Positions 14,261 through 50,825 of a DNA stretch of 64,000 nucleotides are shown here, in pieces. Each line of letters starts with the position of its first letter. The first letter of the stretch is position 1. The notes beneath the pieces are model-generated. The model was not told where the DNA came from and searched no databases. It saw only the letters and a program-made list of their open reading frames with translations. The position numbers were made by a program, and so were the translations under genes. Source of the stretch: Escherichia phage KIT01; sequence record AP019521.1. One strand, given 5' to 3'.

Positions 14261-14782
14261 TTAATATCCTCGGTCTTGACGAGCAAAGTTCTCGGCATTT
14301 TTCAGATAATACAACTTAAAGATTTCTTCAGCAGTCAGACCAAGGCCTTGGAACATATTCAGAACAAAGTGCAGAATATCAATCATCTCGAATTTAATCT
14401 CGAGCTGGTCTTCAGGAGACAAATCGTTAATCAGGGTTTCACGACGTTCAGCATGTTGAGCTTTCCAAGGCTTCCATACTGCAGATGCATCTTTTTCACC
14501 ATTGCTCATACCGCCAAGAGAAGTCAGAAGTTCACGGAATTCGTCATCAATATAATCTTTCTGATTACGCAGCCAATCAACAACTTCACCTGCAGTGGCC
14601 AAATCATCAGGATGACGGTTATATTCAGGTTTATCTTTAGCCAAACGGACCTGTAATGATTTCTGCATATCAAGCATAACCTGCAGAGGGTCTTTATCTT
14701 CGTGAATCAGAGCATTAAAATAAGCTTCCTCAGCTTTATCAACACCTGCAATCAGTTGAGAACATTCATTAAAATGAGCCAT
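14261..14782 (-). CDS. 56: dCTP/dCDP pyrophosphatase (MazG-like)
   Basis: start at MAHFNEC as in T4 gp56; DPLQVMLDMQ, EIFKLYYLKN..ENFARQDRGY C-terminus matches T4. Confidence 0.85.
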   Translation of the reverse strand: MAHFNECSQLIAGVDKAEEAYFNALIHEDKDPLQVMLDMQKSLQVRLAKDKPEYNRHPDDLATAGEVVDWLRNQKDYIDDEFRELLTSLGGMSNGEKDASAVWKPWKAQHAERRETLINDLSPEDQLEIKFEMIDILHFVLNMFQGLGLTAEEIFKLYYLKNAENFARQDRGY

Positions 14783-14872
14783 TATATTTTTCCTTTTCAA
14801 TTCATTAGTAAGTTAGATAATTATAAACTGTCAGATTAAAGCGAATAAATAATAATTTAACAGGAGGATAAC

Positions 14873-20047: not shown

Positions 20048-21212
20048 CTAAATCCATCTCTTCTAAATCGTTTTCGATATCAGCGGCGCTTTGGGTATTT
20101 CCACCTAATTTAACAGCAACGTTCTTAGAGACACGAGAGTTAATAAGGTCGTTCACTGCATCGTCAACTTCTTTAATAGAATTAATTGCACCGAGCTTAT
20201 ACTTATTCTCGATTGCTTCACGGAACGGAGCATGTTTAAACAGCGGTCCCCAGAACTCAACACAATCGGTAGCTTTAGCACGCCATGCTTTTTCTTCTTG
20301 AACCATTTCACCTGTGGTTTCGTCAAGGAATGCACGATTATACCAGCCAGCTTTAGGTTTCACGACAAAGCCAATATCAGTAGCCATTTCAAGCAATCCG
20401 CTGAATGGGTCGATACCACCTTCGAAGTTAACAGTGATAGGGAACGTTGATTTCTCTTTAACCGTACGAGATTTCTCAGCCTTCAGTGTGAAGTCATAAC
20501 CAGTGAGCTCAGTACCATCTTTAACCTGACGTTTAGAGATAAAGAACACGGTAGAAGCAGAGTACAGAATACCAGTACCACCACCCATAATCTCTTTAGG
20601 ATACATTCCACCAATTTCCATAGCCGTGTGGTTAATTGCTACACAAGGGATATCTTTGATGGTCAGATAAGGTGTTACGATACGGAACAGAGATTTCAGT
20701 GACTTAGCACGAGTCATATCACCTACAACTTTCTCGTTCAAAGCATCTTCGGTTTCTTTCTTAGAAGCAGTGTTACCGATGGAGTCGATAAAGATAATAA
20801 CCTTTTCGCCACGAGTAATTTCTTCTAACTGGTTGGTCATATCAACTTTAAGCTGTTCGACTGACTGGATTGGGGTATGAACCACACGTTCCAAATCAAC
20901 ACCCATCGAACGGAAATAAGATTCTGAAGCACCAAACTCAGAGTCATAGAACAAACAAATTGCGTCTGGATATTTCTTCATATATGCCGCAACCATGGTA
21001 AGTCCAAACAACGTTTTAAAGTGTTTAGATGGAGCAGCAAAGATTGTCAAACCTGATTGTAAGCCTGCATTCAACGCACCACCTAATGCAATATTCAGCA
21101 TAGGGATACGAGTAGGAACTTCGTCACGACCATTAAACAATTTAGATTTGGTCAGGTCGGCAGTCATTTTAGAAGTAGAAGCTTTAATCAAACGGGATTT
21201 TAAATCAGACAT
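20040..21212 (-). CDS. uvsX: UvsX recombinase (RecA-like)
   Basis: 390 aa; MSDLKSRLIKASTSK...FYDSEFG... very close to T4 UvsX. Confidence 0.95.
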   Translation of the reverse strand: MSDLKSRLIKASTSKMTADLTKSKLFNGRDEVPTRIPMLNIALGGALNAGLQSGLTIFAAPSKHFKTLFGLTMVAAYMKKYPDAICLFYDSEFGASESYFRSMGVDLERVVHTPIQSVEQLKVDMTNQLEEITRGEKVIIFIDSIGNTASKKETEDALNEKVVGDMTRAKSLKSLFRIVTPYLTIKDIPCVAINHTAMEIGGMYPKEIMGGGTGILYSASTVFFISKRQVKDGTELTGYDFTLKAEKSRTVKEKSTFPITVNFEGGIDPFSGLLEMATDIGFVVKPKAGWYNRAFLDETTGEMVQEEKAWRAKATDCVEFWGPLFKHAPFREAIENKYKLGAINSIKEVDDAVNDLINSRVSKNVAVKLGGNTQSAADIENDLEEMDLDD

Positions 21213-21289
21213 TATATTTTTCCATAGGCATCATTATATTTTACTCACGTTTTAAGATAGGGTAATTATATCACTTCATATTTACAGCG

Positions 21290-22183
21290 TTAAAGGACCA
21301 CGTCCTCATAACTTGGCATTTCGTGCTCAGAATGGATATGGGCACCGAAATAAATGAATTCAGCTAGACCAGGATGGAATACTAAACCAGGATTCTCATG
21401 ATAAATGATATGAGGTCTTGATTTCAGAATCTGATAATATTCAACCTTACTCGGTTTGAATTTAATAATCTCTACATCAGGACGATAGTCTTCACGCTTA
21501 AATGAATCATTCGGATCGGTGATATAAAGGCGAGAACCTCCAGCCGCAGCTTGGTCTACAACTCTTTCGAATTGATAGCATTTATCAGAGATACGGAATG
21601 GATGGAAAATACCATCAATTTTAATAGGCGCTAGACCTTCAGAGTAACGCTCAATTACTGCCGGATTAATTACCTTTTGGTCTACAAAAATCTTATCAGA
21701 GGACGCACCTCGTGACACCAGGACGTCTTTCTGGCATTGATTCAAGACTGTAGTATAAATCGAACGTTCAACTGAAGACACGTCGATATCAATGAACTCA
21801 TCGATGTAATAACGAGGAACTTCAGGGTCCATTGTAATGTTAAAGTTGAATTGTACAGTATGAGCACCATCATAACCTGTGATATCGGTTACCAATCCTG
21901 AGCAGTCATAGTATTCGATTAACGAATCAACAACGAACTCATTTTCAGACCAAAAATGTTTACGAGTTTCATAAGCATTTTCTTTATACCAAAGCGGTAC
22001 AAAATTCAGTTCAGGAAACAATTCAATACATTCTTTGATATCGCTCGAATTTCTAGGATAAGCCAGATAATCACCTGGGCAAGCACGGTTTAAATGGAGT
22101 TGAAAATTACCGTCCTTAAGGACGGCATATTCACCTGTTTCGTAACTACGCATACTGAAAATAGGAACGATAAACAAACTCAT
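21290..22183 (-). CDS. unrecognised protein at the beta-glucosyltransferase locus (candidate hmC-modifying transferase)
   Basis: 297 aa; lies between uvsX and gene 42 where T4 has beta-gt; no similarity to T4 beta-gt detected by eye. Confidence 0.55.
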   Translation of the reverse strand: MSLFIVPIFSMRSYETGEYAVLKDGNFQLHLNRACPGDYLAYPRNSSDIKECIELFPELNFVPLWYKENAYETRKHFWSENEFVVDSLIEYYDCSGLVTDITGYDGAHTVQFNFNITMDPEVPRYYIDEFIDIDVSSVERSIYTTVLNQCQKDVLVSRGASSDKIFVDQKVINPAVIERYSEGLAPIKIDGIFHPFRISDKCYQFERVVDQAAAGGSRLYITDPNDSFKREDYRPDVEIIKFKPSKVEYYQILKSRPHIIYHENPGLVFHPGLAEFIYFGAHIHSEHEMPSYEDVVL

Positions 22184-22878
22184 TTCAGGAATCCTCGAAC
22201 GTAGTCAAAATCACGTTCAAATACATGTGCACTAACCATAGTATGGGAATACGTACCCAGACCAACACCACACTGTTCAGCAATAAAGGCCATCAGTTTA
22301 CCCTGCAGATAGAAATCCAGCTGCATAACGATAGCACAGTTCTGTGAACGCATATGGGTATGTGCATAAAGACGTCCATCACGAATATAATATGTTACCG
22401 AATCGGTGCACGGATATTCTAAGGATTCGTCAGAATCAAGGAGGGCTTGGTCTTGTTCTTGGAGAATTTGGAACACAACTCGTCTCGAGTTAGGCTTTTC
22501 TTTAAGCTCTTTAAGTAAGGCTGGGAGTTGGGCCACAATTCGAGGTCCATAGAAAGTGTTGAAGTTTGCAGGCAATACGTCACTTTTCGGCTTATCAATG
22601 AACTTAGCAACATTAGGGTATTCCTTAAATGCTTCGGCGGCATCAGTACCGCCGGAAATCATAAACTTCCAGAAAGATTCGGCATAATCATAGTTGATAC
22701 GATTAATACGAGGGTCGGTGAATTTATAGGTGCTTGCATCCAGTACTTCTACCGAAGCAGAACCAATTTCATAACAACGGCCGATACGAGAATCAACTGC
22801 AAACTGTGGAGCTTCCAGGATTTCTTCGTTCATTTGCTTAAACGCGTTTTCAAAACTAACAGCGGTAATGTGTTTCAT
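22180..22878 (-). CDS. 42: dCMP hydroxymethylase (thymidylate synthase fold)
   Basis: 232 aa; PCTDSVTYYIRDGRL...MRSQN...QLDFY aligns with T4 gp42 CTNTVQYLIRD...MRSND...RNDY; synteny. Confidence 0.8.
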   Translation of the reverse strand: MKHITAVSFENAFKQMNEEILEAPQFAVDSRIGRCYEIGSASVEVLDASTYKFTDPRINRINYDYAESFWKFMISGGTDAAEAFKEYPNVAKFIDKPKSDVLPANFNTFYGPRIVAQLPALLKELKEKPNSRRVVFQILQEQDQALLDSDESLEYPCTDSVTYYIRDGRLYAHTHMRSQNCAIVMQLDFYLQGKLMAFIAEQCGVGLGTYSHTMVSAHVFERDFDYVRGFLK

Positions 22879-23411
22879 TTATTCACCTTATTTTCAATAT
22901 ATTCATTCAGACGTTTTAATTCTACCATATCGACGTTAAGCAAGTTATTATGCCCGTCATGGTTTAAAACTTTAAAAACATTTTTAAAACAGTCTTCATA
23001 TTTTTGGATAGTTAAGTTGAATTCATCTTTAGTCAGTTTAATGAGGTCATCTTCAAAGTCTTTATCCAACGGATTACGGGTTAAAATAATCTCAATGATA
23101 TTGAATTCTTTTTTGAAATCAATCCAATCTGCTAGTTCTACATAAGGGTCCATTTCACCACGAAGGAATCCCGAGTAAACAATATTACTAGGATACCCAC
23201 GGTCTAAGATGTAGACAAAATTAGGGTCTAAAAACTTATACAACGTCTCGACTAAAGCCTTGTCATTATCAGTCCCTAATGAAATGCATTTGCCATTAAT
23301 CTTTTTAGGGAAATCAATAAGACGATATTTCTTATCAGATAAAAGTGATTCAATTAAAGTAGACTTCCCGGAATTATCCGGGCCGTCGATAACAATGATT
23401 TTTGGTTTCAC
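22875..23411 (-). CDS. P-loop nucleoside/nucleotide kinase-like protein
   Basis: 178 aa; Walker A IIVIDGPDNSGKSTL at N-terminus; small kinase fold typical of dNK/TMK-like enzymes. Confidence 0.6.
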   Translation of the reverse strand: MKPKIIVIDGPDNSGKSTLIESLLSDKKYRLIDFPKKINGKCISLGTDNDKALVETLYKFLDPNFVYILDRGYPSNIVYSGFLRGEMDPYVELADWIDFKKEFNIIEIILTRNPLDKDFEDDLIKLTKDEFNLTIQKYEDCFKNVFKVLNHDGHNNLLNVDMVELKRLNEYIENKVNK

Positions 23412-23782
23412 GGATGATATGCCTTATAGGTTTCAAGAGTTCCTTCACGAACCATTTCTTTAAAGTGGTCAGGACGGATTGCTCGGTCATCGATGATAAA
23501 AGTATAACTCGGCTTATGTGTAAGCAGATTATGATATTTCAATCCGATCTTTTCAAGGTTCTTAACCAATGCAGGAACTACTTCAACCAAGATTCGACCA
23601 GGGCCGCATGAAGTCATGCCACGGGCAGTGAACAAGGTAATCTCATGACCTTCGTCATAAAGCTTATTAATCATGGACACCATTTCGGTGTCCGGTTTAA
23701 AGTTTTCGTAATCACGGTCATCTTGCCAGTGAGTAATGGTATTATCGATATCAAAACACAGATGCATTAAATTTTCTTCCAT
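23408..23782 (-). CDS. HAD-superfamily phosphatase-like protein
   Basis: 124 aa; motif I FDIDNTI (DxDxT), later TAR and IIDD motifs; alternative start at 23767. Confidence 0.55.
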   Translation of the reverse strand: MEENLMHLCFDIDNTITHWQDDRDYENFKPDTEMVSMINKLYDEGHEITLFTARGMTSCGPGRILVEVVPALVKNLEKIGLKYHNLLTHKPSYTFIIDDRAIRPDHFKEMVREGTLETYKAYHP

Positions 23783-25440
23783 TGTTTGTGGAGTTCAGTA
23801 GAACCTGTAGGTTTATATTTTACACCAGTTTCCTGGTCAAGCAAAACCCACTTATCAGGGCAACGAGTGATAATTTGAGCCGTAATAGGGTCACGAACTT
23901 CATCGACAAATTCACCTGTAATAAGCTTACGCTTACGAGGATGCCGCTTCAGCAGCACACTCAGTTGGTATAGACCGTTGTAATAAGCACCCAGAGCTTT
24001 CAGAGGATTATTCTTAAAGTAACCTGCCAGTGCCATCCAAATAACGGCAATCCAGAGCTTGTGCTTAAATGTACACATCGGAATATCATCTAAAGGCATA
24101 ACCTTTTCAATATCAACGAATACACGAGTTCCGTTACGAGTTAATCCACCCCATAGAGGGTCAGAGTTAAATTTGTCATAGCCATCGATAGAATAAAGCA
24201 CCTTAGCTTCGTCATAAATCGCAGGGCCTTTAGAACTATTACCAAAATAACCACGTGGGTCGATGATTTTAATATCACCTTCGTCCGACAGCATAATATT
24301 ACTGTAGTGCGGGTCACCATGAATAAGTTGGTATGGTTCTTTATGTTCAGACAGAATTTCTAGTGCATGACGGAGAAGTTTTTCAGGGTCGCCTACCTTG
24401 AAGTCGTTAACATGGGTAATGCCCTGTGGAGCAAAGCCTTCAATCAATCCAGCAATAGAAGCATTACGAATAAGGACCTTGTCCAATACTTCTTTCTTAA
24501 CATCAGAATACCATTGCTCATCGGATGGGTTATCGATAGTTCCGCCGAATGAACGCAATGCACTAATGACCTTATAAACCATGAGGACTTTGGTTTCTTT
24601 AGACATAAACCGGTAGGCATCTGCCATGGTACGACCAAAGATACGTTCCATTTTAATGAATTCGCCTGGAGCAAAGTCTACAATGCTAGGAACGAATTCA
24701 GAATCAATAGAATTATACCAATTGATTTCTTTAGATTGGATTTCTTTACCTAATTCGTTGGTAGGTACTTTAATAGCCAGATTCTCAGTGAATTCTAATT
24801 TATTAAATTCACGGTTAATTTCAGAATCTTCATGGGCCTTAGCCAGTTTCAATTTGTCACCGACATCAACCACAAAGTCCAGCTTACGTTCAGTCAAATG
24901 GACCATCGAATCCAGGTTGTCTGCAAGGTCTTCGCCATAATTAGAACGGTCGAAACCTGTCCAATTAGCCACCTGATACAAACCAACCACACCACCGCCA
25001 GTACCAATTTCACGCAAGTACGGTTCTTCAAATGTAAAACGACAGTCGGTCCCATAGGTATAACAGTAGTCGTTATCCCACTCAACTTTATGACCTTCAG
25101 GAATAATATCACACCAGTTAAACAAGACATTATGCCCGATGATATCTTCGGCAATGCAATCGATAGCATGAGCTGAACCATTGGCCACATCTACGTTACG
25201 GATAGTGAATTTAGGCTTATCACTGGTAATCATGTTAATGGATTTAATATAGCCTTTAACGAGGTCGTTAAATTTGCTGTGAATAACCAGAATAATTTCA
25301 TCTGATTGGTTACTATACAAATCATACAAATGTTTTAATACGGTATGTTGTTTGTAGTTAACCAATACCTTCGGGATTTCGTTAGTAATTGGATACAACC
25401 GTGAGCCAAGACCCGCGCCTAAAATAACAACCTTTTTCAT
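23767..25440 (-). CDS. bifunctional sugar-1-phosphate nucleotidyltransferase / APH-choline-kinase-like sugar kinase
   Basis: start set at MKKVV after GAGGAA SD; N-terminus VVILGAGLGSRLYPIT..IPKVLV = RmlA/GlmU signature; C-terminal HGDPHYSNIML...IIDPRGYFG = Brenner kinase motif. Confidence 0.7.
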   Translation of the reverse strand: MKKVVILGAGLGSRLYPITNEIPKVLVNYKQHTVLKHLYDLYSNQSDEIILVIHSKFNDLVKGYIKSINMITSDKPKFTIRNVDVANGSAHAIDCIAEDIIGHNVLFNWCDIIPEGHKVEWDNDYCYTYGTDCRFTFEEPYLREIGTGGGVVGLYQVANWTGFDRSNYGEDLADNLDSMVHLTERKLDFVVDVGDKLKLAKAHEDSEINREFNKLEFTENLAIKVPTNELGKEIQSKEINWYNSIDSEFVPSIVDFAPGEFIKMERIFGRTMADAYRFMSKETKVLMVYKVISALRSFGGTIDNPSDEQWYSDVKKEVLDKVLIRNASIAGLIEGFAPQGITHVNDFKVGDPEKLLRHALEILSEHKEPYQLIHGDPHYSNIMLSDEGDIKIIDPRGYFGNSSKGPAIYDEAKVLYSIDGYDKFNSDPLWGGLTRNGTRVFVDIEKVMPLDDIPMCTFKHKLWIAVIWMALAGYFKNNPLKALGAYYNGLYQLSVLLKRHPRKRKLITGEFVDEVRDPITAQIITRCPDKWVLLDQETGVKYKPTGSTELHKQWKKI

Positions 25441-25500
25441 TATCTGTTCCTCAAGTGAATGTAGGTACATTATACACTATTTTTAATAAATTGGTATTGC

Positions 25501-26001
25501 TTAAATCTTATCTTTACCGATTTCAATACACTGTTCTATTGCCGCCGGTACTTTGGTCTTGAGCTTATCGATTTGTTTCTTATAATCACGAGCTTTACCG
25601 AAGCTCTCGGTTTCGAGCATTTCGTAATAACGAGCCTCATGGATAGAAATCTGTAGATTGATATGGTTTACACACATCGCATACAGTTTCTGCTTTTTGT
25701 ACAAATCATCTTGGCGCTTCATTTCTGCCTGGTGTTTGGCTAGTACCGCTTCACGCTTGGACTCTTGTTCACGTTGGAATTCGATTTCCCTTTGAGCATA
25801 TTTTGCACAGTTATTACCGCATTGATTATTAGCTCGGGTATACACAAGTCCAGAACCAGCACGGAATTTCATTTCGCCATCGAATTGTTTCTGTTCAGCT
25901 GCGATACGAGCTTTACCAACTTCATCGGTCGAAACTGCATCACCATATTGGACCGCGCAACCTGATAGGAGCATACTCATTGCGATAATTAACTTTTTCA
26001 T
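25501..26001 (-). CDS. predicted lipoprotein
   Basis: 166 aa; signal peptide with lipobox LSGC; charged coiled region. Confidence 0.5.
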   Translation of the reverse strand: MKKLIIAMSMLLSGCAVQYGDAVSTDEVGKARIAAEQKQFDGEMKFRAGSGLVYTRANNQCGNNCAKYAQREIEFQREQESKREAVLAKHQAEMKRQDDLYKKQKLYAMCVNHINLQISIHEARYYEMLETESFGKARDYKKQIDKLKTKVPAAIEQCIEIGKDKI

Positions 26002-26008
26002 AATATCC

Positions 26009-26146
26009 TCAATTAAAACAGTTATACTTAATTTGTGCTATAAGAATAATCCATCCAATGATGAGTGTCGGAATCATTGGCGGAATTGCCACTGCCCAAT
26101 AAATGGTAAAGGCAGTCATTATAAGAAATAAAATAATTATTTTCAT
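26009..26146 (-). CDS. small hydrophobic protein (45 aa)
   Basis: read manually: MKIIILFLIMTAFTIYWAV...; ATGA overlap with stop of upstream gene. Confidence 0.3.
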   Translation of the reverse strand: MKIIILFLIMTAFTIYWAVAIPPMIPTLIIGWIILIAQIKYNCFN

Positions 26147-26379
26147 TGTTTAACAATAATGATTTGTGCGTTTGATTTACGTTCAGCGACGATAGCCCAG
26201 ATTAAAGCCACTACCCAACCAATCATCGTCCAGCCTAACAGAAGATTAAGGAAGAAAATTCCGACATTACTACGAGTGCCTCGCAGAAGAGCCAGAATCC
26301 ATGGTAAAAAGTAACCGATGAACATAATAGCCAGAGAACCAAATCCTAAAACACCAGCACTAACGATTAAAGCTTCCAT
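26143..26379 (-). CDS. imm: superinfection immunity protein Imm-like membrane protein
   Basis: 78 aa, two hydrophobic helices, LLGWTMIGWVVALIWA motif; position between 42 and 43. Confidence 0.55.
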   Translation of the reverse strand: MEALIVSAGVLGFGSLAIMFIGYFLPWILALLRGTRSNVGIFFLNLLLGWTMIGWVVALIWAIVAERKSNAQIIIVKQ

Positions 26380-26394
26380 TGTAATTTCCTCATG

Positions 26395-26439
26395 TAGTTG
26401 ATAGGAAGGATACTACCACGTTCCATGTGGTATGTAAAC
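26395..26439 (-). promoter_or_regulatory. early promoter cassette upstream of imm
   Basis: gtaaac 26434-26439; gttgatagg core. Confidence 0.5.
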
Positions 26440-26441
26440 AC

Positions 26442-29153
26442 TTAAAAGTCGAACATATCAAATAATGTTGCTTTTTTCTCGTAGTCGATTTTAGCAGATT
26501 CAGTAAAACCAGTCAGAGGTTTGATAAAGGTCTTTTGGAACAGTACGTTGTAGTCCATCCAACGGAGGACCTGGTCACGAATCTGAACCGGAAGTTCAAT
26601 ACCCGACGGCCATGCCATACAAGCTTCACCAAACGGGTTGCCTTCTTTAAGCGGCAGCACATATACCTTTTCACCATCAACGATACGAGGCATAGTCAAA
26701 TCACCTGCAGAAGCACGCATGTAAGCTAAGCAACCTTTGATGTGGTATGGACATTTAGAGCCAGGGAATCCACCTTCATTATATTTCTCGATGTTGTTAG
26801 CACTGGATACTGCTGCAATGCTTACATAGTTGAGTTCGTTAAATTCCTTATTAAACTGTTTGAAATATTCTTGCAAAGATGCCTCGCCTTCCTGAAGCAT
26901 ACGACGGATACATTCCTTCAGAGCTTTCTGAACTGCTTTAGGTGTACTTGATTTCTGAGTTTCAAGACCCATGATTTTCAAGTGTGGTTCGGCATAACGA
27001 GTACCTTCCATGTCCCAAACGTTAAGTGCATAACGTTTCTTGCCTGTCCAGAATCCACCAAGACCTTTAGAACCAAGTGGAGGACCAGCGATAGCTTCTC
27101 GGTCCATGAACATCAAGTGCTGTTTGTTGTTCATATACTCGCACATCTCACGGAAGCCTGCATCAATAGCAGGTTCCATACGTTCACGTGCAAATTTATC
27201 TAAGAAGTCGACCCAGTGGTTAGTATCACGGAATTTATCTTCGCCTACTTTATTGATGATTGCATCCGCCTTAACATAAATGGAGTCAGTATCACCATAG
27301 AGCACGAACTTCTGATTTTCAGTCTTACACACGCTATTCAGATATTCGTTAACCTTACGTTCAATCCATTGGAGGGCCATTTGACCAAACAGTGTGATTG
27401 CAGTTGCGTTCCTGAGGTCATAGTAACGGAACCATACGTTACCAAGTGCACCATAAAGGGAGTTGATAAGCAACTTACGGTTAATCTGAGCAGTGTTACC
27501 TGCAACTTCAGTGAGCTCGGCTTTCTTCAACATTTCTCTTAAAGAAGGCGCTGACAGTGCTTTAATCTGGGCTTTGATTTCGTCAGAGAAGTCAAAACGA
27601 TAATCGATATCCAGTGGACTATCAACTGAGAGATTAGGATTTTCCAATGCTTCTTTAATTAACTCACCATTACGTTGAGCTGCAAGCATGTAACCTTTAT
27701 GTTCTTTACGCTGCAAGAATACCTTGGTGATTTCTGTCGGAATCACACCTTCACGGTCTTTATAATACATCATGCCGTTAGGAGAGCAACTGTAGACGTC
27801 GCTAGGACGCGGAGCTGTTCCGGCAATATATTCATGTATCGGTGCGTTAGCGAATGTCCCTGCGATGGTCTCTGGGCTTATATTCACTTGTCGAATGATA
27901 CTCGGGTACAGAGATGTAAGGTCGAAACTCATTACATATTTGTAAGCGTTAGGAATCGGTTCCTTAACGAAAGCACCAGGATAAGGTTGGACCACGTGTG
28001 AACGAGCTTGTGGAATTACCTTGCCTTGTTCTTTAAGACTATTAAAGATAATAGCGTCCCAAGTCTTAATTGGACTGAACACCGACTGAATCTGCATCTT
28101 GGCATAATAACCCATGTCCAAACTCAGAAGAATGAACTGGCGTTTCATATCAATCTGCACTACACGATATACGTCGATAATGTTATAGGAAATATATCGT
28201 TGGTGGTTCGTCTCACGTAACTTAGAGATCGGACCATCATATTTCAACTTACCTACTTTCAATTCATATTCAGAAACATAATCCAGAGAATAAGAAGGCT
28301 GGTTGGTGAAGCTGAATTTTTTATAAAGGTCGATATAATCTAGAACAGAGATACCGAACAAAGTAATGATTTCACGAGCACCGTACATGTTCTCGATAAC
28401 TTTAACACGAGTTTTACGATGCGGGCTTAATCGCTTAGCAGTGTTCTCACCGAACAGATTTTTCAGACGGTTATAAACGTACGGCACGTCAAACGACTCA
28501 ACGTTCCATCCAGTCAAAATCACAGGGGTTTTCTGTTGCCAGAAATTCAAGTACTCAAGCATCATTTCTTCTTCGGAATTAAACGGAAGATAAACGATTT
28601 TGTCAATGATTTCCTGTGGAACTTCGTCACCACCTTCTTCTTGGAGTTTCTCAGCGATTTTAATCGACCACTCTTCAACAGTACCATAAGGCGAAACTAA
28701 AAGGTCGAATACATAGAATTTATCGTCAATCGAGTCGTAGTGGGTAATGGCATCGATAGGATGTTTGGCCTGAGCTGGTTCAGGGAATCCATCAGGAGAT
28801 GTTACCTCGATGTCGAAGTTAGCAATACGAATCTTAGAAGAATCATATTTGATTTCTTTACGATAGGTATCAGACAAATAGGCTAATTTATAGTCGTCCA
28901 TACCCAGGGCTTCGAGACCCATATCGTCCATACGTTTCATCCATTGGGATGCATCACGCATAGAATCGAATTCTTTCTTAACACAACCCTTACCATAGAT
29001 ATCAATGTATTTTACGGCTTGCTCTGGATTAGCATGCATAAACATTGTAGGCTTGTATGGAACTTCACGACTACGTTCGTTACCATTTTTATCGATGTAA
29101 CGTTCGAGAATATTATCACCGATTTGTTCGACTGTCAAATAGAATTCTTGCAT
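26442..29153 (-). CDS. 43: DNA polymerase (family B)
   Basis: start set at MQEFYLTVEQIG matching T4 MKEFYISIETVG; exonuclease motifs, YGDTDS, C-terminal clamp-binding tail. Confidence 0.95.
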   Translation of the reverse strand: MQEFYLTVEQIGDNILERYIDKNGNERSREVPYKPTMFMHANPEQAVKYIDIYGKGCVKKEFDSMRDASQWMKRMDDMGLEALGMDDYKLAYLSDTYRKEIKYDSSKIRIANFDIEVTSPDGFPEPAQAKHPIDAITHYDSIDDKFYVFDLLVSPYGTVEEWSIKIAEKLQEEGGDEVPQEIIDKIVYLPFNSEEEMMLEYLNFWQQKTPVILTGWNVESFDVPYVYNRLKNLFGENTAKRLSPHRKTRVKVIENMYGAREIITLFGISVLDYIDLYKKFSFTNQPSYSLDYVSEYELKVGKLKYDGPISKLRETNHQRYISYNIIDVYRVVQIDMKRQFILLSLDMGYYAKMQIQSVFSPIKTWDAIIFNSLKEQGKVIPQARSHVVQPYPGAFVKEPIPNAYKYVMSFDLTSLYPSIIRQVNISPETIAGTFANAPIHEYIAGTAPRPSDVYSCSPNGMMYYKDREGVIPTEITKVFLQRKEHKGYMLAAQRNGELIKEALENPNLSVDSPLDIDYRFDFSDEIKAQIKALSAPSLREMLKKAELTEVAGNTAQINRKLLINSLYGALGNVWFRYYDLRNATAITLFGQMALQWIERKVNEYLNSVCKTENQKFVLYGDTDSIYVKADAIINKVGEDKFRDTNHWVDFLDKFARERMEPAIDAGFREMCEYMNNKQHLMFMDREAIAGPPLGSKGLGGFWTGKKRYALNVWDMEGTRYAEPHLKIMGLETQKSSTPKAVQKALKECIRRMLQEGEASLQEYFKQFNKEFNELNYVSIAAVSSANNIEKYNEGGFPGSKCPYHIKGCLAYMRASAGDLTMPRIVDGEKVYVLPLKEGNPFGEACMAWPSGIELPVQIRDQVLRWMDYNVLFQKTFIKPLTGFTESAKIDYEKKATLFDMFDF

Positions 29154-29208
29154 TTCATTTCCTTTATAGACGAGTGATTGTCTTTTGTTTGTTGATGAAT
29201 CATTATAC

Positions 29209-29233
29209 TCCAAAAGGGACCGAAGTCCCTTTG
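29209..29233 (-). terminator. UUCG hairpin between regA-downstream ORF and gene 43
   Basis: minus GGGAC-UUCG-GUCCC followed by UUUU; may also act as gene 43 leader structure. Confidence 0.45.
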
Positions 29234-32802: not shown

Positions 32803-32845
32803 ATAAATATCTTTATCAGTCGCTGTATCAAATAAGGATTTGATA

Positions 32846-33562
32846 ATGAATTATAAATCAATATACGAAAAGCTTATTCAACGAGCAGTTAATAGAAATT
32901 TAACTACCTATAAAGAACGTCATCACATTATACCACAATGCATGGGTGGGACGGATGACGCTTTAAACTTGGTAGACTTAACACCTGAAGAACATTACTT
33001 GGCTCATCAGTTGTTAGTTAAAATCCATCCAGATAACGCATCGTTAGTCTACGCAGCAAGAATGATGACAGTTAGCTCACCAAAAGCTGATAGGTCTAAA
33101 AATAAATTATTTGGATGGCTTCGTCGTAAGAATTCAGAAGCCCAAAAGGATAAAGAATTCTCTGAAGAAACCAGAAAGAAAATGTCAATTTCTGCTTTAA
33201 AAAAGCCTAGAGTTACCTGTCCACACTGCGGCAAAACTGGATTGGTAGGCAATATGAACAGATGGCATTTCGATAACTGCCCTAAAGGCCCTAATAAAGT
33301 GGACCGCTCTATATCTGAAGAGCAAAAATTAAAAATAAAGAAAGGCCTAGAAAACATGGTCTATAAAATTGTGGAATGTGAATTCTGCGGCCTTTCAGGA
33401 AAATCCTGTGTTATTGCCTCTCATAAAGTTTTTTGTAAGAAAAATCCTAACGGGCGCAAAAAAACAGAAAAGAAGGTAGAATGCCCTCATTGTGGTAAAC
33501 AAGGGAATTCCGGTAATATGAATCGTTGGCATTTCGATAACTGTAAAATGAAGCCTCAATAA
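32846..33562 (+). CDS. free-standing HNH homing endonuclease with repeated zinc-finger modules
   Basis: ATG at 32846 after AAGGA; HNH core HHIIPQCMGGTDDALNLVDLTPEEHYLAHQ; three CxxC..C modules, two near-identical (CPHCGK.G..GNMNRWHFDNC). Confidence 0.8.
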   Translation: MNYKSIYEKLIQRAVNRNLTTYKERHHIIPQCMGGTDDALNLVDLTPEEHYLAHQLLVKIHPDNASLVYAARMMTVSSPKADRSKNKLFGWLRRKNSEAQKDKEFSEETRKKMSISALKKPRVTCPHCGKTGLVGNMNRWHFDNCPKGPNKVDRSISEEQKLKIKKGLENMVYKIVECEFCGLSGKSCVIASHKVFCKKNPNGRKKTEKKVECPHCGKQGNSGNMNRWHFDNCKMKPQ

Positions 33563-35500: not shown

Positions 35501-36519
35501 CGTGTAACCTCATTATAAAGTTGCGCGGCCATAGTCTTAAGGGCTTTAACATCATCTTCAGTGTGGCCGTCAGGAAGGGCATCGATATAATCATACATCA
35601 TATCCAAGAGGGACTTAACTTCATCTTCCTCTTCAGAATCATCGATATCAACACTGTTATCTACCTTAGACACAATACGTAAAGAATGGACAACCTTTTC
35701 AAGCTCTGATTCGAACTTAGTAAGTCCATCATCGATTTTATCGACTATAACACGAACTGCGATATTTGTAAAATCTTTGTAATCGATAGTCGCATTTGGA
35801 TAATGAATCTTACGGTGCCAACAGGTTTCATTGATGATGAAATCCATCTTATGAGTTTCTGTATCGAAAATCCAGAAGCCGCGAGGGTCATTCTCATCAC
35901 CTGCAGTTAGGGTCCAGGGCGTACCAATATACTTAACGTTTGCTGCATCAGAAATAGTGTGGAAGTGGCCTGACCAAACCTGCTTATATCTCTTAAGGAA
36001 ATCAGGTTCTAAACCATGGGATTTCATTCCTTTATAGAAATAGAAACCATTTAATTCCCAGTGACCTATACAGAAATCTGCCGTGGTATTTTTGATATGG
36101 TCCATGATATCAGTCGTGTTTTCTTCACACATCCATGGAATCAAATCAATTTCGGTGCCATCAAAATTAACAGTAGTAGGTTTCTCGTAAACAGTAAAAT
36201 TTTCATACTGAGTAAGAAGTTCAGAAACTGCATTAGGAGTTATGCTATTTTTAAACGTTGCATCATGGTTACCAATTATAACATGGACTTTAATACCTGC
36301 ATCGCTGATAATTTCCACCAGACCACGATTAAATTCCATACATTTATGGGTGATAGCCTTGCGTACATCGAACCAATCACCATATTGAATCCATGTATCA
36401 ATATTGTTTGCTTTAGAATATTCTACAGCCTGTTTAATACCGTTAAGCTGGATTTTCTGAATCCAAGGGTCATCGGCTTTTACTCCGATATGCAAATCAC
36501 CTATATTCAAAATTTTCAT
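35497..36519 (-). CDS. 47: recombination endonuclease subunit (Mre11/SbcD-like)
   Basis: 340 aa; phosphoesterase motifs GDLHIG, GNHD, GHWE matching T4 gp47. Confidence 0.9.
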   Translation of the reverse strand: MKILNIGDLHIGVKADDPWIQKIQLNGIKQAVEYSKANNIDTWIQYGDWFDVRKAITHKCMEFNRGLVEIISDAGIKVHVIIGNHDATFKNSITPNAVSELLTQYENFTVYEKPTTVNFDGTEIDLIPWMCEENTTDIMDHIKNTTADFCIGHWELNGFYFYKGMKSHGLEPDFLKRYKQVWSGHFHTISDAANVKYIGTPWTLTAGDENDPRGFWIFDTETHKMDFIINETCWHRKIHYPNATIDYKDFTNIAVRVIVDKIDDGLTKFESELEKVVHSLRIVSKVDNSVDIDDSEEEDEVKSLLDMMYDYIDALPDGHTEDDVKALKTMAAQLYNEVTR

Positions 36520-37370
36520 AATCTACCTTTATAATGTATTTCACTATTAAATTCTATCTCAGAAATCATAAAGCTTTTTATGCCGTCATTAGCCCAGATT
36601 TTCTTAGGTCTAGTAATTGTAACTGTAGGCTTAAAAATTTTATAAACCAAATTGTGATAATTACCATCCATAAAACCTTTAGCTAAAGCTATTTCTCTAA
36701 ATTTATACGGTGGCAAAAATCCAGTAGAAATCCAAAGCTCTTTTAATTCTTTTTGAATATCAGGGTCATATATCCCATCGGTCTTTTTCAAGTTTTTCTT
36801 ATGTTCATCGGTTAGAAAACTGCCAAGGACCCAAGATTCAGGTTGTTTTCCTTCTACAAATAATCCTTTATCAACGCCATTGTTATACCACTTCTTACCC
36901 TTATTATGACTAGATGCTTTATAATTAGGAGAACGACCTTCTACGTATCCTTCGGGGACTGTAGGTGCAAAGGTTTGTTCTAATGTAACAGGATTATAGG
37001 AATGAATATATCCTTTGGCATTATGAGAGCCATAAAGAGGGTGTTGCTCTTTAGGTAGCGAAAGCCCAAAGAATCCTTTAGGAGCGGCGACAGCCCTATT
37101 AAAGAATAGAGGATTTTGGGCTGCGTCAGTTCTTAACTGGTACATTCTTTCAGCTTCTAAAGCCTCTTCTCTTGTAGGGTGTTCGCTTACAATACACGAG
37201 TCGAATAATTCAGGATGCTCTAAAAGCTCATTTTTATATATTTCTTTATATGCTTTAGAAAGGACACTCCCGTGATACCCTTTCAAATGCTTCTCCAAAG
37301 TGGTAGACCCTATATAAAACGGTGGAAGCTTAGTCCCGGAATATATTGTCAGGTATGTGATGTATTTCAT
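36516..37370 (-). CDS. GIY-YIG homing endonuclease (Seg-like)
   Basis: 284 aa; N-terminal YITYLTIYSG...FYIGST, conserved R and E (EALEAER); sits where T4 has 47.1/alpha-gt. Confidence 0.7.
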   Translation of the reverse strand: MKYITYLTIYSGTKLPPFYIGSTTLEKHLKGYHGSVLSKAYKEIYKNELLEHPELFDSCIVSEHPTREEALEAERMYQLRTDAAQNPLFFNRAVAAPKGFFGLSLPKEQHPLYGSHNAKGYIHSYNPVTLEQTFAPTVPEGYVEGRSPNYKASSHNKGKKWYNNGVDKGLFVEGKQPESWVLGSFLTDEHKKNLKKTDGIYDPDIQKELKELWISTGFLPPYKFREIALAKGFMDGNYHNLVYKIFKPTVTITRPKKIWANDGIKSFMISEIEFNSEIHYKGRL

Positions 37371-48696: not shown

Positions 48697-49678
48697 TTAT
48701 TTCAGAAGGGTAACTTCAGCGATTTCGCTCCAGTCATTTTTATCGGTGGCAATGAAGTCCGCCAGATAAAGAGCTGTACGTAATGATACGTTACGAAGAC
48801 GAGATACATTAGCCTTCATCCATGCTAAAGCTTGATAAGTCTCAGCATCAGTCAGACCTCGATTTTGCATCATATCAGTGGACAGGATAACGTCTTCAAC
48901 ACGAACCATAATCTCTTCGTTAGAGTGAACTCCGAGGTCTAAGTAAACTGAACGAGATACTAAAGCCTGGAGGTGTGGAGCAAGTTTAGTTCCACGCTCT
49001 AATTCACGGTCGATATCAACGTTGGTGATGAACACGATGGTGCCTTCGTATTCAAATTCTTTATCGATATTTTTATCATCGAGGTAAGAACTTGAAGTGC
49101 TCCAGCACACCTTACGTTTTTCACCTGTATCCAATGCCGCTTTTAACAGGTTCAGGATATCCATATCAGAGAATACATCAACATCATCAATAAGAAGAAC
49201 ACTATTAGGGCCGCGGTTATTCCAAAGCTGCTCGTAAAGACCGATTCCACTAATCTTTCCGTTGATTGATTTATATTCGATAGTTTCATTTTCGTGGGCA
49301 TTTTGTAATGCTTTATCCAAAGAATACGTTTTACCAATACCTGCGGCACCAGAGATGATAAGGGAACGAATTTTACCATCGATGATTCCGTTGGTCATCA
49401 TGTTCATTACTTTAAAACGTTTGTTAATGCGATGTTTCATTTCTTCAGCGGATTCAGTAACCATTGCAGGAGCTTCAGCACCTTCCATTTCAACGTCACA
49501 TTTGAACACCCATACACCACGTTCAACACCATCAATCTGTACGAATACCTTGCCATCACCGAGGTGAGCTTCGGATTCATGAATTTTGTTAGGGAACCAG
49601 GTTTTACCTGAACTCATGAACGTACCAGAGATTTCATTACCGCGATAGATGCCTTTGTTGATTTTGATAGTTAACATT
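48697..49678 (-). CDS. AAA+/P-loop ATPase
   Basis: start set at MLTIKINKG after GGAG SD and downstream of promoter -10; Walker A GAAGIGKTY, Walker B VLLIDDVD. Confidence 0.6.
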
Positions 49679-49699
49679 ATATTCTCCATTTCACTCAGT

Positions 49700-49743
49700 A
49701 GATTTGATAGGTCCATAATAACATGCTCTACGAGAGTGTAAAC
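49700..49743 (-). promoter_or_regulatory. early promoter cassette upstream of AAA+ ATPase gene
   Basis: gtaaac 49738-49743, 17-nt spacer, TATTAT. Confidence 0.5.
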
Positions 49744-49760
49744 TCTTTTTTGCACTAAAC

Positions 49761-49784
49761 CCAAAAAGGCCCGAAGGCCTTTTA
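49761..49784 (-). terminator. intrinsic terminator after nucleotidyltransferase-fold gene
   Basis: minus GGCC-UUCG-GGCC followed by UUUUU. Confidence 0.5.
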
Positions 49785-50825
49785 TCATTTATAATACGAG
49801 TTGTGGTTGTCGAGGTATACCTCTTCAACGAACTTGTCCCAGAACTTCATGTCTACCTTCTCAGGCATACCGTTCTTAGCGGCCCAGATAGCATTAGTTT
49901 CGACTTCATCAACGATGGCTTCAAGTTCGGCCTGCACATCTTTAAAAGCATGAAGCCCTTGTTTGATTTCAAGGATAAACGGTGCCGTACGTAAAGGATA
50001 TTGGAGGTCACCTGTTTGATAGATTTCCTTCAACTGATAACCAGCACGATAAGCATGGCTCAGAGCTTTCCAGTCAATACCTTCGTTAGCTTCAGCCTTA
50101 CGAGCACGTTCACCATATTCCGCATCGAGCTTATTCAGAGATTGCTTGAGCTCGATTAATGACAGGGTGGTTTGGTATTTACGCCCGAGAACAGTATAGA
50201 ACGTTTGAGGGCCTGTTTTCTCATGGTTATGGAATACCCATTCACAGAATTCGTTTTCAGGGAGTCGATGTTTGATATCTTCTACCTTAGTACGACGTTG
50301 CTTAGTCGAACCATCTTCTTGATAATCGACCCACTGTTCAGGAATCTGGTTAACAATAGCCAGTACACCACGCAGAGCAGCCAGTCGAGAACCCTTAACA
50401 CCATATTTAGAAGCTTGCTTACGGACATACCCTAAATAGGCTTTCATGTTAGTTGTATAGAACCGAGAACGGTTATCTTGGATAAATTTCCATACATCAG
50501 GTAAATCAGATTTAACCACCAGTTCAGGTGGGGTGTGGAGCATATCCAGAGCAACGGTTTCGCCTTCAGCCGCTAGTTTAAAGAAATATTTCAGGCTGTA
50601 AAGCTCATGGTCAACATCATCTTTAGTGTTTTTGGAAGCAGTGTTATTCGTATTCAGGTTGGTATGGTTCATAGCCGTACCTAACAGAATATCACGCGGA
50701 TGTGGAACAAAGATTTCTTTAAAATCGACATCAGATTCCGGAGTACTTGTTCCATAAAGGTGGCTACCGAAGTAGCCTTTCATAACTGTTCTCATTCTTT
50801 GTTCTCGAAGTGGATTACAGGACAC
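49785..50825 (-). CDS. Pol-beta-superfamily nucleotidyltransferase-fold protein
   Basis: 346 aa; N-terminal YFGSHLYGTSTPESDVDF = G[SG]x9-13 D-x-D NTase signature. Confidence 0.5.
   Translation of the reverse strand: MSCNPLREQRMRTVMKGYFGSHLYGTSTPESDVDFKEIFVPHPRDILLGTAMNHTNLNTNNTASKNTKDDVDHELYSLKYFFKLAAEGETVALDMLHTPPELVVKSDLPDVWKFIQDNRSRFYTTNMKAYLGYVRKQASKYGVKGSRLAALRGVLAIVNQIPEQWVDYQEDGSTKQRRTKVEDIKHRLPENEFCEWVFHNHEKTGPQTFYTVLGRKYQTTLSLIELKQSLNKLDAEYGERARKAEANEGIDWKALSHAYRAGYQLKEIYQTGDLQYPLRTAPFILEIKQGLHAFKDVQAELEAIVDEVETNAIWAAKNGMPEKVDMKFWDKFVEEVYLDNHNSYYK

Follow-up and report, generated by a model that had tools for sequence, protein, structure and literature searches.

A five-gene Dhakavirus cluster of Escherichia phage KIT01 as a probable minimal form of the arabinosyl-5-hydroxycytosine pathway

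How does a T4-like coliphage decorate the cytosine of its DNA when the place of the T4 glucosyltransferases is taken by a set of other genes? This question is raised by a block of five genes at positions 21290–25440 in a stretch of Escherichia phage KIT01 (AP019521.1) of 64,000 nucleotides (nt), the whole of which is referred to here as the window. The original prediction described the block as a non-glucose hypermodification module, with an activated-sugar arm and a transferase, occupying the place of the T4 glucosyltransferases and similar in logic to the system of RB69, and the comparisons presented below argue for that description. It also took the modified base to be 5-hydroxymethylcytosine (hmC), made by a deoxycytidine monophosphate (dCMP) hydroxymethylase encoded by gene 42, and the enzyme set to be different from that of RB69; both of these claims had to be given up. 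In all likelihood, the block represents the arabinosyl-5-hydroxycytosine pathway of phages as it occurs in Dhakavirus, which is the smallest version known so far. All five of its proteins are full-length orthologues of proteins of the RB69/HY126 cluster (79, 66, 63, 43, and 37% identity), their RB69 counterparts being gp45, gp46:47, gp48, gp51, and gp52:53. The module as such is already known, and the window adds an ordinary member to a recently characterised pathway.

All genes of the flagged region are located on the minus strand, and the list of open reading frames (ORFs) of the window places the five genes of the block between gp43/imm and uvsX. In the order of transcription, with lengths in amino acids (aa), they are as follows:

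25440..23767, minus strand: fusion of a nucleotidyltransferase (NTase) and a kinase, 557 aa
23782..23408, minus strand: HAD protein, 124 aa
23411..22875, minus strand: P-loop kinase, 178 aa, GTG start
22878..22180, minus strand: ThyA/gp42-like protein, 232 aa, the "gene 42" of the original prediction (here the ThyA-homologue)
22183..21290, minus strand: GT-B protein, 297 aa

The HAD and kinase genes overlap in the sequence GTGA, an ATGA overlap is present both at the junction of the kinase gene with that of the ThyA-homologue and at the junction of the latter with the gene of the 297-aa protein, and the stop of the fusion gene overlaps the start of the HAD gene by either 1 or 16 nt, according to the choice of the HAD Met. 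Since all four junctions overlap, the five genes, from the fusion to the 297-aa protein, form one translationally coupled unit, as had been proposed. The gene and domain calls made previously (P-loop, HAD, NTase-kinase fusion, lengths of 557 and 297 aa) likewise agree with the ORFs, Pfam matches, and motifs. The kinase, HAD, and fusion genes had been described as coming after gene 42, which is correct in plus-strand coordinates only; in the direction of transcription they precede the ThyA-homologue. A scan of positions 20900–26600 for sigma-70 promoters and terminators gave no enrichment over shuffled sequences.

Identities to proteins of RB69, HY126, and T4 were obtained with BLASTP against the proteins translated from these genomes. 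The ThyA-homologue is 79% identical to both RB69 gp48 and its HY126 homologue, compared to 25% for T4 gp42. It matches the Pfam family Thymidylat_synt, and its PC(T) nucleophile motif is intact. In a five-way alignment, the position of D169 of E. coli ThyA lies within the motif RSQN in the proteins of the window, RB69, and HY126, whereas T4 gp42 has RSND and E. coli ThyA has RSCD at the same place; the RSQN motif is likewise present in the Marfavirus and Bragavirus orthologues. In the same alignment, the column of the catalytic Cys146 is invariant, and the window protein carries an aspartate (MQLD) where E. coli ThyA has Asn177, a substitution that leads to cytosine specificity. A sequence search of the PDB gave matches of about 1e-125 to 9iqc, 9iqu, and 9ir2 (1.6e-125 for 9iqc), as opposed to 4.7e-6 for 1b49, which is T4 dCMP hydroxymethylase. 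The entries 9iqc/9iqu/9ir2, as well as 9iqw, are probably HY126 enzymes, to judge from their length, numbering, and the series that they share with 9iqz, labelled 'phage HY126 glycosyltransferase'.

RB69 gp48 and DLP3 gp80 convert dCMP to 5-hydroxy-dCMP (5hodCMP) with the participation of a bound flavin and with oxygen derived from O2, as followed by 18O2 incorporation for RB69 gp48, and flavin-dependent, O2-derived hydroxylation of dCMP has also been reported for the HY126 enzyme (PMC13326640). The D169N substitution was proposed in the same work as the diagnostic residue, nine further D169N homologues also making 5hodCMP (PMC13326640). The identity of 79% as opposed to 25%, the presence of D169N, and the matches in the PDB point in the same direction: the ThyA-homologue is most likely a 5-hydroxy-dCMP synthase orthologous to RB69 gp48, and not an orthologue of dCMP hydroxymethylase, so that the expected base is 5-hydroxycytosine (5hoC) rather than hmC.

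The protein encoded by the first gene of the block consists of an N-terminal NTase domain (Pfam NTP_transferase, 3e-8, residues 13–110) and a C-terminal APH/choline-kinase-like domain (APH, 1.3e-5, residues 356–427), with intact catalytic motifs of both the nucleotidyltransferase (GAGLGSR) and the APH-type kinase (HGDPHYSN...IIDP). It is 42.7% identical, over the full length, to a 562-aa protein of HY126, 41–44% identical to RB69 gp53 and gp52, and matches phrog_4098 with 3e-269. The Met at 25440, where homology starts, is preceded by a Shine–Dalgarno-like sequence (GAGGAA), and the frame is open ten codons further, to 25470 (567 aa). By these comparisons, the fusion can be assigned as an AfhE-type bifunctional sugar kinase/nucleoside diphosphate (NDP)-sugar pyrophosphorylase, orthologous to RB69 gp52:53; an identity of 43% would not by itself fix its specificity for D-arabinose 5-phosphate and uridine triphosphate (UTP).

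The HAD protein is 63% identical to RB69 gp51 and to its HY126 homologue, and a PDB search returned 9iqw (3.8e-54) and 1xpj (1e-11). Its motif I, DIDNT, comprises residues 11–15; the Pfam HAD match is weak, and the NCBIfam match to TIGR01689 (capsule biosynthesis phosphatase, 5e-14) is under the curated cutoff. Judged by its orthology to RB69 gp51, it would be an AfhF-type sugar-bisphosphate phosphatase. The HAD gene has two candidate starts. With the Met at 23782, the protein comprises 124 residues and its gene overlaps that of the fusion by 16 nt; this N-terminus is still covered by the homology to the HY126 protein. The Met at 23767, the choice made for the RefSeq relatives, yields 119 residues and a 1-nt overlap (TAATG). 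In the part of the work of He et al. (2026) that is reported by Lee et al. (PMC13326640), HY126 AfhE, equivalent to RB69 gp52:53, converts arabinofuranose 5-phosphate to the 1,5-bisphosphate, the HAD protein AfhF, equivalent to gp51, takes off the 5-phosphate, and the N-terminal domain of AfhE then makes uridine diphosphate (UDP)-arabinofuranose. By orthology to AfhE and AfhF, the fusion and the HAD protein of the window would be expected to carry out the same reactions.

The 297-aa protein is 66% identical, over the full length, to a 299-aa protein of HY126, and 64–69% identical to RB69 gp47 and gp46, which represent a single gene broken by a sequencing error (PMC13326640). It has no Pfam hit; structure prediction gives a GT-B fold with high confidence, and a hidden Markov model of its family finds one copy only. 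The sequence and the predicted fold suggest that it is a GT-B glycosyltransferase, the orthologue of RB69 gp46:47 and DLP3 gp79 ('arabinosyltransferase 1', base-proximal). With RB69 gp45 and a 182-aa kinase of HY126, the P-loop kinase shares 37% identity; it also matches phrog_761 ('thymidylate kinase', 4e-40), and carries a Walker A motif, GPDNSGKS. Searches of PDB, Pfam, and NCBIfam yielded only weak similarity to YorR and to dTMP/CMP kinases. The kinase is present in all clusters examined, namely those of RB69, HY126, and Klebsiella phage EI, and the Bragavirus loci, and its sequence identifies it as a probable thymidylate-kinase-like nucleotide kinase orthologous to RB69 gp45.

Homologues of alpha-gt and beta-gt are found neither in the window nor in the complete genome of WG01 with either tblastn or phmmer, which bears out the earlier statement for the window and extends it to the complete genome of a close relative. 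Searches of the window and of the whole WG01 genome for three members of the RB69 cluster (tblastn, E<=1; phmmer against all ORFs, E<=10) likewise detected none of them: the SIS-domain arabinose-5-phosphate isomerase (gp55), the U32-family protein (gp50), and the second, chain-extending transferase (gp3). A Pfam scan of ten other large unassigned ORFs of the window revealed no glycosyltransferase or SIS domain. In a phage collection, the fusion enzyme has 367 records, the isomerase 276, and the gp3-type transferase 212. Among the matches listed, neither of the latter two is carried by any Dhakavirus or Klebsiella phage, and the gp3-type transferase is limited to Mosigvirus and Acinetobacter phages. 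The isomerase accompanies the fusion enzyme in Mosigvirus and Acinetobacter phages and probably also in Bragavirus. RB69 gp50 belongs to the Pfam family Peptidase_U32, as do RlhA and TrhP, which take part in the C5 hydroxylation of pyrimidines in RNA. We can speculate that the U32 protein of the RB69, Marfavirus, and Bragavirus clusters might provide a second, oxygen-independent route of hydroxylation.

Thus assembled, the pathway of this phage would have two arms that meet at the transferase. In the base arm, gp56 would supply dCMP and remove dCTP, the ThyA-homologue would hydroxylate C5 of dCMP with the use of flavin and O2 to give 5-hydroxy-dCMP, and the deoxynucleoside monophosphate (dNMP) kinase gp1 of the phage, together with the NDP kinase of the host, would take the product to the triphosphate. 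RB69 gp1 turns 5hodCMP into 5hodCDP (PMC13326640), and gp1 in WG01 is encoded outside the region that matches the window. The polymerase gp43 would then put 5-hydroxy-deoxycytidine (5-hydroxy-dC) into DNA instead of deoxycytidine (dC). In the sugar arm, as there is no phage isomerase, D-arabinose 5-phosphate would be drawn from the host pathway of 3-deoxy-D-manno-octulosonic acid (Kdo), where it is formed by KdsD and GutQ; both E. coli and Klebsiella always produce arabinose 5-phosphate for Kdo by means of these enzymes. The C-terminal kinase domain of the fusion would phosphorylate arabinose 5-phosphate at C1, the HAD phosphatase would take off the 5-phosphate, and the N-terminal NTase domain would combine arabinofuranose 1-phosphate with UTP to form UDP-arabinofuranose. 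The 297-aa GT-B enzyme would finally put arabinofuranose on the 5-hydroxyl, yielding ether-linked 5-O-arabinosyl-dC. With this transferase as the only one present, mono-arabinosylation of the DNA is predicted. In this phage, the acceptor of the 297-aa transferase may be either DNA or a nucleotide.

The source of the window is a Dhakavirus (JS98-type T4-like coliphage). The DNA of the block shares 95–97% nt identity with about 50 phage genomes, including WG01, QL01, Bp7, IME08, and MX01, and WG01 is placed by the NCBI taxonomy in the JS98 group of Dhakavirus (Straboviridae, Tevenvirinae). Several reports have touched on this group before. Petrov et al. (2010) recorded that RB69 and JS98 have a gene-42 homologue but no glucosyltransferases; Thomas et al. 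(2018) described arabinose in the DNA of RB69 and listed gp43 of the Dhakavirus IME08 as homologous to the fusion enzyme over its full length (PMC6024577). A catalogue of the genomic region from gene 43 to uvsX in the Tevenvirinae was given by Nikulin et al. (2021). Lee et al. (NAR 2026) revised the identity of the base to 5-hydroxycytosine and extended the pathway, by synteny, to Dhakaviruses, Marfaviruses, and others (PMC13326640), and the Durham Collection paper confirmed 5-ara-dC and 5-ara-ara-dC in another Mosigvirus (PMC13390438).

In RB69 and HY126 (Mosigvirus), the cluster comprises gp45, gp46:47, gp48, gp50, gp51, gp52:53, and gp55, as well as gp3, the HY126 proteins being those named Afh. 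The block of the window resembles it in its position between gene 43 and uvsX and in five shared protein families with full-length orthology at 37–79% identity, among which are a D169N synthase, a GT-B first transferase, and a bifunctional kinase-pyrophosphorylase with its HAD partner. Unlike RB69, where gp3 is located between rIIA and gene 39, Dhakaviruses are devoid of gp55, gp50, and gp3. The P-loop kinase gene lies between the HAD and synthase genes in Dhakavirus, whereas in RB69 and HY126 it follows the transferase gene; the imm and lipoprotein-like genes, in turn, are kept next to gene 43 in Dhakavirus, unlike in RB69/HY126. Klebsiella phage EI (Marfavirus), with proteins 69–87% identical to those of the window, has the order fusion-HAD-kinase-U32-synthase-transferase and is likewise without the isomerase, but it retains the U32-family 'peptidase', which the window has lost. 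At the isomerase position, the Bragavirus locus encodes a presumed isomerase, whose annotation refers to similarity with a protein of Mosigvirus JS09. The fusion enzymes of Dhakavirus and Marfavirus are 43–47% identical to those of Bragavirus and Mosigvirus, the identity between the Bragavirus and Mosigvirus enzymes being 51%, and both the fusion enzyme and the P-loop kinase evolve fast in all lineages compared.

The logic of the T4 system is preserved in that an enzyme of the thymidylate-synthase family makes a C5-oxygenated dCMP, this nucleotide is directed into DNA by gp56 and gp1, the hydroxyl is then decorated by a GT-B transferase, and the transferase gene occupies the beta-gt slot adjoining the synthase gene. 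The differences from the T4 glucosyl-hmC system are the absence of a gp42 orthologue (25% identity and another diagnostic residue) and of alpha-gt and beta-gt; the sugar donor of T4 is UDP-glucose of the host. Shewanella phage Thanatos, a distant member of the Straboviridae, combines a single syntenic ara-GT with mono-arabinosylated cytosine (PMC13326640), which is the pattern predicted here.

Several points weigh against the assignment of the block to the arabinosyl-5-hydroxycytosine pathway. A literature search found nucleoside analysis of no Dhakavirus DNA, JS98-type phages included, which leaves orthology as the sole basis for naming the product. The fusion shares no more than 43% identity with AfhE, and its partner isomerase is lacking, so the sugar could differ. 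The absence of further transferases beyond the window rests on WG01, and sequence-level searches can miss very remote GT-B proteins. Single first-step transferases, those of RB69 and DLP3 included, showed no activity on 5hoC-DNA with either UDP-arabinofuranose (UDP-Araf) or UDP-arabinopyranose (UDP-Arap), and Lee et al. left open the possibility that the first arabinosylation takes place at the level of the nucleotide (PMC13326640). Nor does the pathway as drawn give a place to the P-loop kinase; since first-step transfer was not seen on 5hoC-DNA and a nucleotide-level route is possible, a kinase dedicated to a modified dCMP would be a reasonable idea.

These points have to be set against other explanations of the block. 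In one, which stays closest to the original prediction, a true gp42 makes hydroxymethyl-dC, and novel enzymes unrelated to those of RB69 add a non-glucose sugar to the hydroxymethyl group. The generic Thymidylat_synt match, all that Pfam gives for the ThyA-homologue, would allow this, as would the names dCMP hydroxymethylase or thymidylate synthase used for the gene in RefSeq and older papers, and the lack of a Pfam hit for the 297-aa protein. However, the ThyA-homologue is 79% identical to the 5hodCMP synthase and 25% identical to T4 gp42, its residue at position 169 is Asn as opposed to Asp in T4 gp42 and ThyA, its PDB matches are 1e-125 (9iqc/9iqu) and 5e-6 (1b49), respectively, and the other four proteins are orthologues of the RB69 cluster, whose own 'hydroxymethyl' assignment has since been corrected (PMC13326640; PMC13390438); an hmC-based system is therefore very improbable. 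We attach equally little credence to the proposal that the neighbours of the synthase are ordinary enzymes of nucleotide metabolism (a dNMP kinase, a nucleotidase, and an unrelated transferase), with bare 5-hydroxy-dC or hmC in the DNA. Such a proposal could appeal to the weak dTMP/CMP kinase similarity of the P-loop kinase and to the match of the HAD protein to a PHROG of polynucleotide-kinase phosphatases (1e-5), but it is contradicted by the tight translational coupling of these genes to the synthase and the GT-B transferase, by synteny kept across several genera of Straboviridae, by the GT-B fold predicted with high confidence for the 297-aa protein, and by the orthologues AfhE and AfhF, which, in the portion of He et al. 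(2026) related in PMC13326640, make UDP-arabinose.

An explanation that deserves somewhat more weight, although it too is unlikely, accepts 5-hydroxycytosine as the base and assumes that Dhakavirus and Marfavirus decorate it with a pentose other than arabinose, the fusion having been retuned to another host pentose phosphate, e.g., ribose 5-phosphate. Neither the window, nor WG01, nor the locus of the Klebsiella Marfavirus includes the isomerase, and the fusions of Dhakavirus and Marfavirus stand at 43–47% identity to those of Bragavirus and Mosigvirus, as compared to 51% between the latter two. On the other hand, the transferase and HAD protein of the window are 63–69% identical to the Mosigvirus enzymes, and the fusion evolves fast everywhere, the Dhakavirus/Marfavirus pair being only a mild outlier. 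In the hosts, E. coli and Klebsiella, arabinose 5-phosphate is always formed on the way to Kdo, as is textbook knowledge. Dhakaviruses and Marfaviruses are grouped by Lee et al. with the arabinosylating clusters (PMC13326640). As the fusion is just slightly more diverged than in other pairs of genera, a different sugar keeps a low probability; if present, a non-arabinose pentose on 5-hydroxycytosine would constitute a further natural DNA base.

With arabinosyl-5-hydroxycytosine as the preferred product, the five-gene version indicates that the pathway can do without the isomerase, the U32 protein, and the second transferase, which would thus be accessories. The trimmed cluster predicts mono-arabinosylation that relies on arabinose 5-phosphate of the host, which is a modest refinement rather than a new system; if the arabinose were to come wholly from host KdsD/GutQ, this would create an exploitable host dependency. 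A more immediate consequence concerns annotation. In RefSeq, the five genes carry the labels 'hypothetical', 'phosphoheptose isomerase', 'thymidylate kinase', 'thymidylate synthase', and 'hypothetical'. The Dhakavirus label "42", dCMP hydroxymethylase, or thymidylate synthase should be changed to 5-hydroxy-dCMP synthase, and the neighbours called 'hypothetical', 'phosphoheptose isomerase', and 'thymidylate kinase' should be referred to the putative pathway of UDP-arabinose synthesis and arabinosyl transfer. Dhakaviruses are frequent candidates for coliphage therapy, and how sensitive they are to restriction, CRISPR, and type IV systems (GmrSD/BrxU) is set by the chemistry of their DNA.

The genes that flank the block, together with the gene of gp56, which is located outside it, are as follows:

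29213..26442, minus strand: gp43 DNA polymerase
26379..26143, minus strand: imm (Pfam Imm_superinfect)
after imm and before the 166-aa ORF in the order of transcription, minus strand: 45-aa ORF
26001..25501, minus strand: lipoprotein-like ORF, 166 aa
21212..20040, minus strand: uvsX
14261..14800, minus strand: gp56 dCTPase/dUTPase (Pfam dUTPase_2; the WG01 counterpart is annotated as gp56 dCTPase)

The 166-aa ORF at 25501–26001 (minus strand) starts with a lipoprotein-type N-terminus, MKKLIIAMSMLLSGC, and separates imm from the modification cluster, approximately where T4 has imm.1. It is a member of phrog_1754 (function unknown), and searches of Pfam and NCBIfam gave no match. It is outside the sugar pathway and may be a candidate superinfection-exclusion or envelope protein.

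Three other ORFs of the window are of separate interest. A 284-aa ORF at 36516–37370 (minus strand), directly after gene 47 and overlapping its stop, occupies the T4 alpha-gt/mobB slot; it was considered as a hidden transferase and rejected, as it is an HNH homing endonuclease (phrog_10820, 8e-83). This gene is found in LQ5, SHP1, and vB_EcoM_005, and is not at that point in WG01, IME08, or QL01; its presence in some Dhakaviruses only marks it as a mobile insertion. A homing endonuclease-like ORF of 240 aa at 32840–33562 (plus strand; phrog_655, 7e-69; traces of HNH and zinc ribbon; TTG start as listed) lies between the rpbA/45.2 region and gene 46, on the strand opposite to that of all its neighbours. 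In the nrdC.10 region, a 363-aa ORF at 48697–49788 (minus strand) has weak Pfam matches, under the curated cutoffs, to AAA/STAND-NTPase and HTH_37, and appears, by unaligned length, to be longer than its presumed counterpart, WG01 ORF92 (326 aa).

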